Assembly: GCA_951406725.2 (NCBI GenBank)
Contig: OX597823.1
Coordinates: 24,242,001-24,306,000 of the forward strand
Source: Octopus vulgaris
Lineage: Eukaryota
Direction: 5' to 3'
Length of the DNA: 64,000 nucleotides
The notes under the pieces: generated by a model
What the model was told of the DNA's origin: nothing
Seen by the model: the letters and a program-made list of their open reading frames with translations, nothing else
Database searches by the model: none
Shown here: one piece after another, positions 3,901 to 54,900 of the stretch
Layout: the number at the start of each line of letters is the position of its first letter
How positions within the stretch are numbered: the first letter of the stretch is position 1
Made by a program: the position numbers and the translations under genes

Positions 3901-6900
3901 AGGGCCTTTTGCAATGGCTGGTCTTCAGTAAATTTTGAACTTAATATTGCAAGCTAACTGATCTATAAATCTTTTCCTTTGGTATAATCTGTAGTTTCTC
4001 TCAGCACCACCACCTGGTCATTCAAGTATTCATGAAAAACGTGGTTAGCAACACTTGATTCAATGTGGTATTTATTTCAATAGCAAACACATACATTTGG
4101 CCAGGCTAGATACAGACCACATTAATCTCACAAATGTAGAACAGAGGGTAACCTGAAAATTTCATGACAGTTGTTTCTGACATGACTAGCTTTTTGAAAT
4201 ATCATCATCATCATCATCATCATCATCATCATTTAACGTCTGCTTTCCGTGCTAGCATGGGTTGGACGATTTTGACTGAGGGCTGGCAAACTAGATGGCT
4301 GCAACAGGCTCCAATCTTGATTTGGCAGAGTTTCTACAGCTGGATGCCCTTCCTAACACCAACCACTTTGACGAGAGTGTAGTGGGTGCTTTTTACATGC
4401 CACCGGCACGGGGGCTAGTCAGGTGTTACTGGCAATGATCTCGCTTGAATCTTTTTATATATGCCACCAGCACAGGTGCCAGTAAGGCAACGTTGGTAAC
4501 GATCACGCTCGAATGGTGCACTTTTACGTGCCACTGGCATGGAAGCAAGTTGGCTGCTCTGGCAAGGATCACACTCGGATGGTGCTCTTGGTACCCTACT
4601 AGCACGGGCACAAGTGCCAAAAAGGCGACGCTGGTAACGATCACACTCGAATGGTGCCTTTTATGTGCCACTTTTATGTGCATGGAAGCTGGTTAGCCAC
4701 TCTGTCAATGATCACGCTTGTATGGTGCTCTTTGCACCCTGCTAGTATGGATGCCAGTCATCGAATGTGATTTTGATTTTGATTTCACTTGCCTCAACAG
4801 GTCTTCGCAAGCAGAGTTTAGTGTCCAAGGAAGGAAAAGGTACACATAAGCAGGCTGGTTATGCTCCTGGCATGGGCCAACTCATAATCAGTTATTTAAT
4901 CATTGTTCATGACCCTAGCGGCTCATTAGAGGTAGTAGATAATTTCTGCTAGCTAGGTGACCAAATTAGTAAAGGGGGAGGATGCATGGAGTGTCTGATA
5001 GCTGGCTACAAAGGGTTTATCTCACCGACTGAAAAGAAGATTGTATGATGCATCTATACAGACAACAATTCTACATGGTAGTGAGACATAGGCCTTGAAT
5101 TCAGAGGACATGTGAAGGTTAGAAAGGAATGAGGCTGGTATGCTCCACTGAATGTGTAATGTAAGAGTACATGTTTGACAGGGTGCTAGTGTTTTGAGAG
5201 AGAAGTTAGGCATAAGAGGAATTAGTTGCTGCATGCAAGGGAGAAGACTGCACTGGTTTGATCATGTGATATGGATGGTTGCTGACAGCTCCATAAAGAA
5301 GAGCTGATCTCTCATTGTAGATGGAACACATGGATGTGAGAGACCTAGGAAGATATGAGACAAAGTACTGAAGAAAAACCCCAGAACACTGAACCTTTCA
5401 GGCAAGATGACTAAGGACCGAGATACCTGGCACCTTGCTCAACACAAGAAGACCAATACTCTGCAGCAGAAGTGTCAAGACTGGTCCCTCTGGTGGTGTA
5501 AAGCACTCCTAGCAGTGCTACATAAAAGTACTTGTGCAGTGCTATGTAAAATTGCCTGTGCGGTGCCACATAAAAGCACCCAGCACACTCTGTAAAGTGG
5601 TTGGCATTAGGAAGGGCATCCAGACAAATCGCACCAAATCAGACTGGAATCAGGTGCAGCTCCCCAACTTGCCTGCTCTGGTTAAACCATCCAACCTATG
5701 CCTTCATGGACAATGGATGTTAAATGATGAGATTTACAGTCATAGTGAAATATCATGAGAGAAGGTAACAATATTGCGTAATAACTATGTCTTTCTCAAG
5801 AGCATTAAATGTTTACATAAAATGAACTGACTTAGGCTGAGAATCAAACCCAGATCATTGACTCACTCCACTCAATCTATATTTATACTAAAAGATCAAC
5901 TAAGGAAAAGAGTCACTTCTTGAATGGAAAACAAATAGTAAGGTGGCTACTTGTTGAATGAAGATATTCTGATTAATAAAATTTTCACTCTCATTGAATG
6001 TTAAAATTAGCTTCCTTCTGTTCATGAAGTTCAAAAGCAACAACCTTGTAAAGATAATCTTCATCTTACTAAAAGTGTAATTTTGATGAATTAAAATCTC
6101 TTAGTTTGTTGCATTAAATTGTGAGTGCCCATATGTATACTATTTATTTATATTTATTTACTACAAATGTTAAAAGTGAAATTATTTTTGTTTACAAGAG
6201 CAAAAGATTGGGAAATGAATAAAGTCATGGGTCTCAATGTGACAAGCCATACTTAGTTTCATCCTTTTAGATGTACTTCACCTTTCATATTCTGAGGTTG
6301 ATAAAACAAGCTCTATTCAAGTACTGCAATTGATTTATCTTCCTGTATCCTCATTGCAGAACATGTGGCCTCGTGTTTATGTTAGGAACTGTTATCAATA
6401 ATACTGATAACATCAACATTATTTATAAATATTTTTGTTGTTAAAGGTGGTGTACTGACAGAATCATTTGAACATCAGATAAAAAATATGCTGTGGTATT
6501 TTTTCTGGCTTTGAATTTAAATCCTGCTGATATTAACTTTGCCATTCCTGGGCTAATAAAATAAAATAAAAAAAAAAAAACAGTCAAGTGTAGAGAGGCA
6601 TTTTAATTGTCCAGTTCTGATCTCAGATATTTTACCTACTTTCTATATTAGAAATTGTTGTTATTGATATAGTTCATCGGTCTAAATTTTACTTTAACTC
6701 TAGATCCTCAGATCCATTTTGTGAAAGTAAGTGGTGCAGCTCTGGATGTACCTGGGAAAATATTGTGGTATAAGAAAAATGTAACAGCAGAAGCCTGTGC
6801 AGAAAAGTGTTTGTCTGAAGAAACTTGTTCATCATTTGAAATAACTAAAGAAGGTGGGAAATGTTACTTATCAAAGGGAAGTGCAGCTGCCTCTACGAAA

Positions 6901-51900: not shown

Positions 51901-54900
51901 ATGGGTAATTCTGACCAGACCTGTTTAGGACAAGCTTTCCTTAGGCCACATTTTTCTAGGTCTTTCTCTTACTAACGTGAGCAGTGCTGTCCTAAAAAAC
52001 TGCCCAGTCACCTGGGATGTTGTCCAATACAAAGAACAGTGATCACTGGTCCACAGGCTGCCTATGTGCAGATTTGTAACTAGAACTTCTAGTGGTTATA
52101 TCCACCTGTCCCTTTCATCACTCCTGTAAGAAATCTAGCTGAGGTTCTCTTCTGTCTTCTTGCACACCACATGACTCTACATGACATCACTCCAGCATTT
52201 CAATAATCTCATCAGTCCTTTTCATTATGCTGACATTGGTTTATAATGAAGTATGATTATATATATATATACACTCATATAATACTGTGTGTGATCATGT
52301 TCTATTGTCAAAAGCAGCATATGTGAATCGTATGAAATTACATGAAGACTGAAATGCCTAGGTAGGTAATAATCTTGTACCCTAACCACCTCTTACAACT
52401 AGTGTCATAAGTCACAAATCTAATATGACAATATCTGAACTTAACAGACACTCAACATCTTAAGGGGACTTTTACATGAATGAAGTTCACAGCCAGTAAT
52501 CACACACCATAACACATACATTAAGTATGAGAAATCAGTAATGTTTCTACTTGATACATTGGCTAACCATCTGTTGAACAGCACTTAGACCATACAAAAG
52601 TTCCACATTAGAAGAAGGATGTACATATGAATTAGATACATCTTAAATTTTGAAACAAGGTTCCAAATAAGTCAGATGTGCTAAAACTCACATGAATTTT
52701 CAGTTGTCATTTTGTGAATCAATTATTTACATGTAATAAATTGTCCATTTAAAGCAAATTATGCACCAGATGATATATAATATTTAGTGTGTGTGTGAAA
52801 AAAGTATAGAATGTACTTCTTATTTTCTTTCTTTTTTTTCCAGCTTATTATGAGTTATTCACAATTAAAAATGCTGCCATACCAGGGCAGGCTAATCTTG
52901 GACAACTGAGAAATGTGGAACTAAAGGAATGTGCAAAAGCTTGCTATCAAATTCCAGGATGTAAATCTTTTGAGTACAATGAAAGAGCTAAGATCTGTTA
53001 TCGAGGTAATGTGAATCACTTGATTCATGACCTTGAACCAAGCAAAAGTGATTCAGACTCTTACATCATTAACCCAGGTCAGTAGAGCATTTTCATTTTG
53101 TTTATTGTGTGTTTTGTGCATACATGTGAGTGTACAATATTCGTACATACATATATATATATATATATATATATATATATAATTAGTGAATGGAAGAAAT
53201 GGAGTTGAACGAAGATTGTACAGAATTCCTTTTATTACATTCTACACATGTTTCAAAGGCCACAATTTTCCAAATTCTGATTAAATAAGGATACCATATT
53301 GCAGCTTTCTCTTCAGGAAAAAGCAGGAATTACGTTGACAGAACAAAACAAAACAGAGGCGCAGCAAAGCAATTCGAACGAGGACGCTCCTTAAGAGCCC
53401 ATGGTTAAACTGTTTATCAATGTACGTTGAAATTGGGGGGTTGGTGGGGGCCGACAAAAGGTCCGTTGGAATAATTACAGGTCAGGCCGCGGTCAAATCT
53501 AGTAGGTGTGGAATTAATGAGAACAAGGGGTGTGGAGATGTTCTGTGTGACCAAAACTAATGTTCTGAATATTTTAAGAATACAGGGTGTATTTTAGGGG
53601 CGAGACAAAACCTACCTAAAAGCATGTATGTGTATACTAGCTTATGTGTGCGCGGCCGTATGTTGGTGAGGGGCGCTAGATAATGAGCACTGCTGAAAAA
53701 ACCTGTCAGGCGGCTGAAAAAATTCTGTGTTCGTGTGTTCGTCTAGAATTTTTTCAGCAGTGCTCATTATCTAGCGCCCCTCACCAACATACGGCCGCGC
53801 ACACATAAGCTAGTATACACATACATGCTTTTAGGTAGGTTTTGTCTCGCCCCTAAAATACACCCTGTATTCTTAAAATATTCAGAACATTAGTTTTGGT
53901 CACACAGAACATCTCCACACCCCTTGTTCTCATTAATTCCTCACCTACTAGATTTGACCATGGCCTGACCTGTAATTATTCCAACGGACCTTTTGTCGGC
54001 CCCCACCAACTCCCCGATTTCAACGTACATTGATAAACAGTTTAACCATGGGCTCTTAAGGAGCGTCCTTGTTCGAATTGCTTTGCTGCGCCTCTGTTTT
54101 GTTTTGTTCTGTCAACGTAATTCCTGCTTTTTCCTGAAGAGAAAGCTGCAATATGGTATCCTTATTTAATCAGAATTTGGAAAATTGTGGCCTTTGAAAC
54201 ATGTGTAGAATGTAATAAAAGGAATTCTGTACAATCTTCGTTCAACTCCATTTCTTCCATTCACTAATTATATTAAACTTCAATTATCCGCACCAACGCA
54301 TGGTTGCAACACCAAATGGTCTTATCTCCAACCGTGTTTTTTTCTGCTGTGATTTTTGCTACCCAGGTATCAGTTAAACTTTTGAATAATCTGTAACAAG
54401 AAAATTCATCTTTCCATTTCAACAAAAAATATATATATATATATATATATATATATATATATATATACGTGTGAAGGGGGTGGGGTGGGAAGATGCCTAG
54501 CTTGCAGAAGTTATTTACTACTGCTAAAGATCCCACTGGATATTTAAGAAGTTTTTATTCTATACATTCTTAATGTTTAATATATCTGCAAATCTACCAT
54601 GCACAAAGACTATTTTCTCTGTTAACCATCTTGTGATACTGCTGTACTTCTTAGGTGTTCATAGCTTGCACTGGTTACATCATATGGAGTTTCTACCAAC
54701 ACCTTTTCTACATATTGAGCAGAGCCATCTCCCTGAAGGGACAATAATTCTTTTGCTTTCCTACTTGCAAATATTTTGATCTTTGTCAAATTAACTCTAA
54801 GGCCATTTGCTTCCATACCTGAAATTTCTTCTATATTTCTGGAAGTGACTCAGTTATAAGAAGATTAGTGTAGAAGAACTTCCACAGACAGCCAGTCATA

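Follow-up and report, generated by a model that had tools for sequence, protein, structure and literature searches.

Fixed cysteine frames and fast-changing codons in a giant Sushi-PAN exon array of octopus

The window analysed here (64,000 nucleotides of Octopus vulgaris contig OX597823.1; positions below are those of the window) holds part of a giant gene built of tandem one-exon modules of three types, Sushi (S), PAN-A (A) and PAN-B (B). The anatomy of these exons is clear: their reading frames are intact, their cysteines and core residues are fixed, and in A and S replacement proceeds at a rate near that of the introns. We put at about one in two the probability that module surfaces drift near neutrality in all three types, with exon-scale gene conversion likely and positive selection at most weak and centred on PAN-A. 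The initial annotation of this DNA had proposed an arms race specific to the PAN exons; the evidence shows instead that the whole array evolves fast.

A six-frame search of the window finds 15 module exons, all on the + strand: six Sushi, five PAN-A and four PAN-B, in the order S1 A1 B1 S2 A2 B2 S3 S4 A3 B3 S5 A4 B4 S6 A5. Sushi exons are 171 nucleotides (nt) long, PAN-A exons 240 nt and PAN-B exons 234 nt. Each of the 15 has an AG acceptor and a GT donor, both in phase 1, and an open reading frame. Within each family the copies align without gaps, and the cysteine frame is invariant, with no indel or stop in any of the 15 exons, as had been claimed for B1 and B3. PF00024 (PAN_1) scores 33-40 bits, against a cut-off of 21.4, in all five exons scanned out of the nine PAN exons (A1, A4, B1, B2 and B4), and the A and B exons have four invariant cysteines, the four-Cys core of this domain. 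They lack the terminal cysteine pair found in the apple repeats of factor XI. The AlphaFold model of A1 (mean predicted local distance difference test, pLDDT, 80.6) places a helix at residues 28-37 and five strands in the PAN layout. A structural search with this model gave no match at E<=0.001, the best ones being the PAN domains of plasminogen and HGF (template modelling score 0.67-0.79, E >=0.004). In the Sushi exons, C6, C32, C42, W48 and C55 are invariant; PF00084 (Sushi) passes its cut-off in two of the three exons scanned, with S4 below it, and reaches 94 bits over the whole protein.

Selection on this frame is purifying: no cysteine change and no stop is seen, against neutral expectations of 5-6.5 and 6-7.5 per family, respectively, and hydrophobic-polar swaps run at 0.56-0.84 of the silent rate. 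The codon tests were run on the 4-6 copies of each family with our own GY94/MG94 code, not codeml, and with naive rather than Bayes-empirical site calls; branch lengths were rescaled from M0 in the second site-model run, in the exon-removal subsets and in the bootstrap and pooled run. Under M1a, a fixed class of 12-43% of sites per family stands alongside a large class at about 1. The conserved class amounts to 17-32% of codons, and the remainder lie at or above an omega (replacement-to-silent rate ratio) of 1; site omega well below 1 throughout, named beforehand as an outcome that would speak against selection on PAN surfaces, is thus not what is found. M1a is not rejected in B or S (p 0.76-0.84), where the codon-only site tests give p 0.3-0.84 (B alone, 0.44-0.81), nor in all families pooled (p 0.07 and 0.24). 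One-ratio (M0) omega is 0.89-1.20 in A, 0.74-0.89 in B and 0.67-0.70 in S, with no difference detected when PAN is set against Sushi (p 0.42 and 0.125). Over five matched S-A units (ten pairs), mean identity is 58.4% for S and 57.7% for A. The contrast first drawn between PAN exons and their Sushi neighbours is mostly not borne out: no other pair among the 15 Sushi pairs is as similar as S1/S4, and identity is 57% for S2/S5 and 59% for S3/S6.

The five paralogous introns between S and A exons provide a neutral yardstick. Their pairwise distances of 0.27-0.36 show one burst of duplication, and they have diverged by about 24% and taken up many insertions, while the exons stay open. When branch lengths are fixed from BLAST-based intron distances (270-2,382 sites per pair), the mean replacement rate relative to the introns is 1.15-1.18 in A and 1.10-1.12 in S, and the silent rate is 0.76-0.87 in A and 1.47-1.52 in S. 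Since A and S replace residues equally fast and only their silent rates differ, the contrast in omega lies in the denominator. Intron distances taken from BLAST pieces come out too low. With anchored multiple alignments, the A silent rate falls to 0.57-0.66 relative to the introns, and the free class, at 1.1-1.2, is not significant; without A1 these values become 0.86 and 1.43 (p 0.03). Raising intron divergence by 30%, to the level suggested by the anchored alignment, leaves a non-significant excess of 1.15-1.25. A looser first intron-calibrated alignment gave, in three of four settings, a silent rate of 0.57-0.64 and no class above the intron rate (p 0.55-0.75). Stricter intron alignments moved towards more signal, so the results are given here as a bracket: it is the intron estimate that decides if the free sites run above neutrality.

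Most of the counts on which the PAN-specific proposal was built are reproduced between positional paralogues (whole codons only, Nei-Gojobori, 31 pairs). S1 and S4 are identical at 42 of 56 residues (75%, as stated) and differ by the stated 14 replacements, with 7 silent differences rather than 8. A1 and A3 share 47 of 79 residues (59%, stated as about 60%) and show 38.5 replacement and 8.5 silent differences; 5 of the 47 conserved residues use another codon (previously 5 of 48). Identity is 32/77 (42%) for B1/B3 and 35/77 (45%) for B2/B4, in line with the 42-45% given. The replacement excess read into a single pair does not hold: replacement sites outnumber silent sites by 2.9-3.6 to 1 in A1/A3, and 38.5 to 8.5 therefore corresponds to an omega of only 1.29-1.67 (p 0.29-0.11). 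None of the 31 pairs is clearly above 1, the lowest p being 0.05 (A1/A4, transition-weighted). Older age of the B pairs had been named beforehand as a refuting explanation of their divergence, and this is what is found: their low identity accompanies a high synonymous divergence (dS) of 0.36-0.55, about twice that of S1/S4 (0.18-0.21); dS of A1/A3 is 0.15-0.19. The 12-residue run without identity between B1 and B3 is present, and its charge is reversed (net -3 versus +4), these being the two extremes of the range among 69 B modules of the family. The run has p 0.026 for that pair, but it is the longest among 31 pairs and thus comes near chance once all pairs are counted. The introns around it were said to be alignable, yet nothing of >=50 nt could be aligned between the A1-B1 and A3-B3 introns; flanking introns do align for A1/A3 (923 nt, distance p 0.22) and for B2/B4 (271+89 nt, distance p 0.18).

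Protein divergence between two Octopus species is 14-18% in every domain, GON included. The comparison covers 48 of 49 listed colinear O. vulgaris/O. bimaculoides pairs (one A was missed through a coordinate shift); an A that carries an internal deletion is counted, and the many-to-many P0012/P0002 region and truncated A models are left out. Differences number 129/704 in A, 215/1227 in B, 187/1289 in S and 27/188 in GON, so that PAN (344/1931, 17.8%) changes about 1.2 times as fast as Sushi (14.5%, p 0.013). [quoted passage not shown] With this value, a genome mean from another species pair, mean omega is 0.73-0.75 in A, 0.71-0.72 in B and 0.58-0.59 in S, and with 27% of sites fixed the free sites stand at 1.02-1.08 in PAN and 0.82-0.84 in S. 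The faster divergence of PAN fits a frozen core with a neutral surface.

Exchange between copies is likely as well. A1 is 95% identical to the A module of a neighbouring gene model (P0005/P0009), while the modules flanking it are only 61% and 54% identical, which makes conversion of this single exon likely. S1 and S6 have a tract in common (nt 68-107 of the exon alignment, corrected p 0.037), and no significant tract is found among the A and B copies of the window (best corrected p 0.43 and 0.46). According to the accessible part of one report, conversion moderately raises the false positives of site tests in small data sets (PMC2880985).

Several results weigh against near-neutral drift. In A, neutral models are nominally rejected by every site test (M1a/M2a p 0.013-0.014, M7/M8 p 0.015-0.043, M8a/M8 p 0.004-0.013), and the bootstrap stands at 3 of 138 replicates (138 completed of 400 planned). 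On BLAST-based distances the free class reaches 1.6 in A (p ~1e-4) and 1.5-1.6 in S (p 0.02), and A2-A5 alone remain above 1 at all three intron scalings (p 1e-4 to 0.05). B2 and B4 differ more in their exons (distance p 0.31) than in their introns (distance p 0.18-0.20) and have a class of sites that evolves far faster than the introns (p 9e-4). Of the single cases, this one speaks most clearly for selection, but it is a lone pair picked for its alignable introns, and the same picture would arise had a third copy converted the exon. In the four youngest duplicate triples, the youngest duplicates including the CAI9728790.1 units at 1606/2518 and 2033/2916, 54/315 positions differ in A, 32/308 in B and 14/224 in S (A versus S p 1e-4, as a pooled count); A (17%) exceeds S (6%) in three of the four and is the most diverged module in three of the four. 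Among 24 disjoint duplicate pairs, B exceeds S in 21, and A does so in 13. Charge-changing substitutions run at 1.26 (A), 1.46 (B) and 0.99 (S) times the silent rate, no significance being computed. The borrowed dS matters as well, for the free PAN class rises to 1.4-1.5 at dS 0.09 and falls to 0.8 at dS 0.16. Finally, three quarters of sites evolving in full neutrality is more than a folded domain usually tolerates, which hints at a mixture of constrained and driven sites.

Part of this would be expected if the A and B exons were under diversifying selection on their binding surfaces, with Sushi modules as conserved spacers, a reading that we consider unlikely. It draws on the A site tests, on the young duplicates (whose pattern, at protein level, favours the direction first proposed), on B2/B4, on the PAN excess among orthologues and on the B1/B3 charge swap, which spans the family range; M1a/M2a on pooled PAN also gives p 0.023 under one frequency model. 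Under the other model, though, the pooled p is 0.107, the orthologue gap is just 1.2-fold, and the duplicate triples were compared without DNA, so that their PAN excess is indistinguishable from conversion of S and B. On the five shared units and against the introns alike, Sushi is level with A; omega does not differ, B alone carries no codon-only signal, and the B pairs have about twice the dS of S1/S4. The A signal itself depends on A1 and on a low dS. It holds on a star tree (p 0.02-0.03) and is lost without A1 (p 0.17-0.22) or without A5 (p 0.11-0.31); it becomes about 0.04-0.09 once three families are allowed for, and its class above 1 comprises 25% of sites at 3.4 or 73% at 1.8 according to the frequency model. 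The candidate fast A sites lie mostly in loops; four of the six (58, 62, 68 and 69) fall in the flexible one that joins the last two strands, where the model is least confident. Fast sites in loops are also what relaxed constraint predicts. On balance, the original observation holds in part, and its interpretation finds partial support.

Diversifying selection could also drive the array as a whole, Sushi modules as well, in bursts that follow duplication and let exons outrun introns in the manner of snake venom PLA2; this we hold to be improbable. With A and S pooled on BLAST distances, 25% of sites are fixed and 75% run at 1.50-1.54 times the intron rate (p 7e-6 and 2e-5), silent sites match the introns (1.05-1.15), and p 0.002-0.004 remains when the introns are taken as 15% more diverged. 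Differences are spread about evenly across codon positions, and the divergence between species reaches 14-18% in all domains, including GON. The excess fades to 1.15-1.19 (p 0.06-0.12), however, at the 30% correction that the anchored alignment implies, BLAST pieces giving intron distances that are too small; the codon-only pooled test is not significant, the S exons may not follow the intron tree, and mean omega between species is below 1. That the array is dead or dying DNA in neutral drift is hardly credible. In its favour, mean omega is near 1, a credible start is missing from every family model and a glycine conserved in 97% of Sushi modules is altered in the RefSeq copy of S4, but all 15 exons are open, free of indels and flanked by intact phase-1 splice sites within introns that are diverged and filled with insertions, neither cysteine changes nor stops appear where 5-7 of each are expected per family, and colinear orthologous modules exist in another species.

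Near-neutral drift with a fixed core would work as follows. In a giant octopus gene that strings single-exon Sushi, PAN-A and PAN-B modules together, between a quarter and a third of the codons of each module would be fixed, as selection keeps the module folded and retains its cysteines and core. The remaining codons, in Sushi as in both PAN types, would change about as fast as the introns. Surfaces would be relaxed by redundancy, since one module among a hundred presumably matters little, with a possible push on A following duplication. Symmetric phase-1 exons allow modules to be gained, lost and exchanged in frame, and this is how the array would be reshuffled. The protein is probably secreted, as all three domains are of extracellular types and the N-terminus of a PAN-only relative in Argonauta is hydrophobic. 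Its chains are lysine-rich (13-14% Lys; net charge +101 and +169 in two 4,000-amino-acid models, with 56-61 sequons), and by analogy with the heparin-binding PAN domain of HGF we tentatively suggest that a long, multivalent chain of this kind might bind glycans or other polyanions. A bolder picture, which we regard as doubtful, is that of a lineage-specific giant secreted chain of 100+ Sushi-PAN-PAN modules, with GON at its end, whose PAN faces positive selection would drive apart directly after each duplication and single-exon conversion would reshuffle. If true, the germline would encode a "library on one polypeptide" that could bind prey surfaces, microbes or gametes, its exons outrunning introns like those of venom genes. 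With at least 153 modules in four models, a divergence of 14-18% and no literature found, the gene is a promising candidate for a protein of defence, mucus or reproduction. Because many of its modules have orthologues and alignable introns, the locus is also a test bed for relaxed constraint versus positive selection.

The parent gene is represented in Octopus sinensis by XP_036361601.1 (LOC118764742, 2,643 amino acids), which contains 14 of the 15 window exons in order, 13 of them at full length, with two amino-acid differences in total. This model lacks S1, shortens A4, and begins with an exon at 5407-5496 inside a repeat that recurs at 40509-41182; it is therefore a fragment, and its true upstream exon is likely S1. 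The same S-A-B repeat occurs in XP_036361599-601, in O. vulgaris CAI9728790-96 and in O. bimaculoides LOC128248837-40, LOC106869390 and LOC106869402, all of them uncharacterised or named by loose similarity (SVEP1-like, ADAMTS20-like). Two O. vulgaris models measure 4,283 and 4,470 amino acids, and the former has a C-terminal GON domain, as does LOC106869402. Four O. vulgaris models together contain 65 S, 46 B and 42 A matches. No credible start or hydrophobic N-terminus is found in the Octopus family models, whose annotated starts are thus probably wrong. No O. bimaculoides orthologues of the window's own modules were found (best matches 55-80%), and a search with the GON region matched only itself. 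Atlas hits all stayed below 0.9 and serve merely as leads. The borrowed names were rejected: P0007 and P0015 consist of PAN and Sushi only, without the vWA, EGF and pentraxin domains of SVEP1, and S, A and B modules cover P0014 end to end; CAI9728796.1, named after ADAMTS9/20 (ADAMTS20-like), has GON but no metalloprotease and no thrombospondin repeats. Weak Pfam rows on P0012 (SH3_3, Binary_toxB and two DUFs) have no passing stretch and were discarded as repeat-sum noise.

Outside Octopus, GAB1601772.1 of Argonauta hians (P0026) has 356 amino acids and four PAN modules in the order A-B-A-B, 31-42% identical to those of the octopus family. Among the matches listed (10 of 150 named), it is the only named non-Octopus protein with full-length A-like and B-like modules. 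It differs from the octopus array in being short, in having no Sushi and in its hydrophobic, signal-peptide-like N-terminus. This one protein suggests that the PAN pair may be older than the Sushi-containing expansion, and it could be a model of the ancestral gene. Two proteins of the annelid Dimorphilus gyrociliatus (P0016 and P0017; 1,964 and 3,398 amino acids) have about 20 tandem PAN-like repeats and no Sushi match; they are separate PAN array expansions. No paper on the octopus gene family was found, although the supplements of expression and proteome papers, which were not searched, may list its gene ids. SVEP1 is mentioned for octopus haemocytes (PMC9712504), but the passage seen names no gene, which leaves it without a link to this locus.

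Table 1. Module exons and S-A introns of the window.
Feature	Position	Strand	Remarks
Sushi S1	802..972	+	phase 1-1; upstream of the range of the initial annotation (6704..53077); missing from RefSeq model
PAN-A A1	6704..6943	+	likely converted exon
PAN-B B1	10625..10858	+	acidic 12-residue block at 10666-10701
Sushi S2	16774..16944	+	
PAN-A A2	19840..20079	+	
PAN-B B2	25419..25652	+	differs from B4 (distance p 0.31) more than flanking introns do (distance p 0.18-0.20)
Sushi S3	27845..28015	+	
Sushi S4	32576..32746	+	
PAN-A A3	34255..34494	+	
PAN-B B3	39163..39396	+	basic 12-residue block at 39204-39239
Sushi S5	44029..44199	+	
PAN-A A4	48129..48368	+	open along whole length; shortened in RefSeq model
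PAN-B B4	52844..53077	+	
Sushi S6	55442..55612	+	tract in common with S1
PAN-A A5	60028..60267	+	array continues past window end
S1-A1 intron	973..6703	+	one of five paralogous S-A introns; neutral yardstick
Other four S-A introns	16945-19839, 32747-34254, 44200-48128, 55613-60027	+	

Around S6 (55442-60027), the upstream flank is S3-like and the downstream intron S1/S4-like, and A5 follows with no second Sushi; these mixed flanks make the seven-exon higher-order repeat a mosaic at this point. Four of 24 listed sequencing runs were compared with 32300-34800; in each, one contig covers A3 with zero differences. The same 2.5 kb shows almost no coding variants, the single replacement in S4 coming from one low-depth contig. 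Gly7 of S4 (32596-32598), conserved in 97% of 63 Sushi modules, is Glu in XP_036361601.1 and would be Arg in a low-depth contig (run X8); Glu or Arg may be an error.

The window also holds likely mobile elements and other repeats. A self-complementary stretch of 1.1 kb (53177-54273, 96% identical to its own reverse complement) starts 100 nt past the B4 donor and has no match in Rfam; it is likely a foldback element or one of the miniature inverted-repeat transposable element (MITE) type, which would form long double-stranded RNA in the pre-mRNA. The A3-B3 intron contains a Tc1-type element (36271-37994) with 260-nt inverted ends 94% alike and a transposase remnant at 36580-37267 split across two frames. 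A second inverted match joins 290-546 with 38109-38365. The S2-A2 intron has a Mariner-type transposase remnant (18661-19288), and the A1-B1 intron an exact 195-nt tandem duplication (9636-10023) that is either very recent or an assembly slip. Short frames at 45856-46233 (+), 49600-50853 (-) and 61992-62321 (-) may be reverse-transcriptase remnants of long interspersed nuclear elements (LINE).

Among known systems, snake venom PLA2 genes provide one comparison. In the accessible part of PMC7285919, their differences are even over codon positions, replacement divergence (KA) is close to silent divergence (KS) and the cysteine frame is kept, as in the octopus array. The B2/B4 exon, more diverged than its introns, has the trait described there for PLA2, whereas A and S exons are about equal to their introns. 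The octopus modules are parts of one giant chain, the PLA2 are separate toxin genes, and nothing links the octopus gene to venom. The PAN domains of plasminogen and HGF (PF00024) have in common with the octopus exons the four-Cys core, a basic surface and the best-matching fold; in these proteins one PAN precedes the kringles, whereas the octopus array has dozens of PAN copies alternating with Sushi and no protease. Fast-evolving repeat arrays with conversion are already known. The closest comparables are presumably abalone VERL, the Sushi repeats of complement receptor 1 (CR1), the kringles of apolipoprotein(a) and invertebrate SRCR arrays, which we take to be shaped by unequal crossover and conversion. 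One-exon modules of symmetric phase, higher-order repeats and mosaic similarity appear to be common to these arrays and to that of octopus. The octopus window differs in having old copies (intron distance about 0.3) that are not homogenised, and the octopus array in joining modules of three types, always ordered S-A-B, to a GON domain at the C-terminus, a (Sushi-PAN-PAN)n-GON build whose architecture and size seem to be undescribed in the literature searched.

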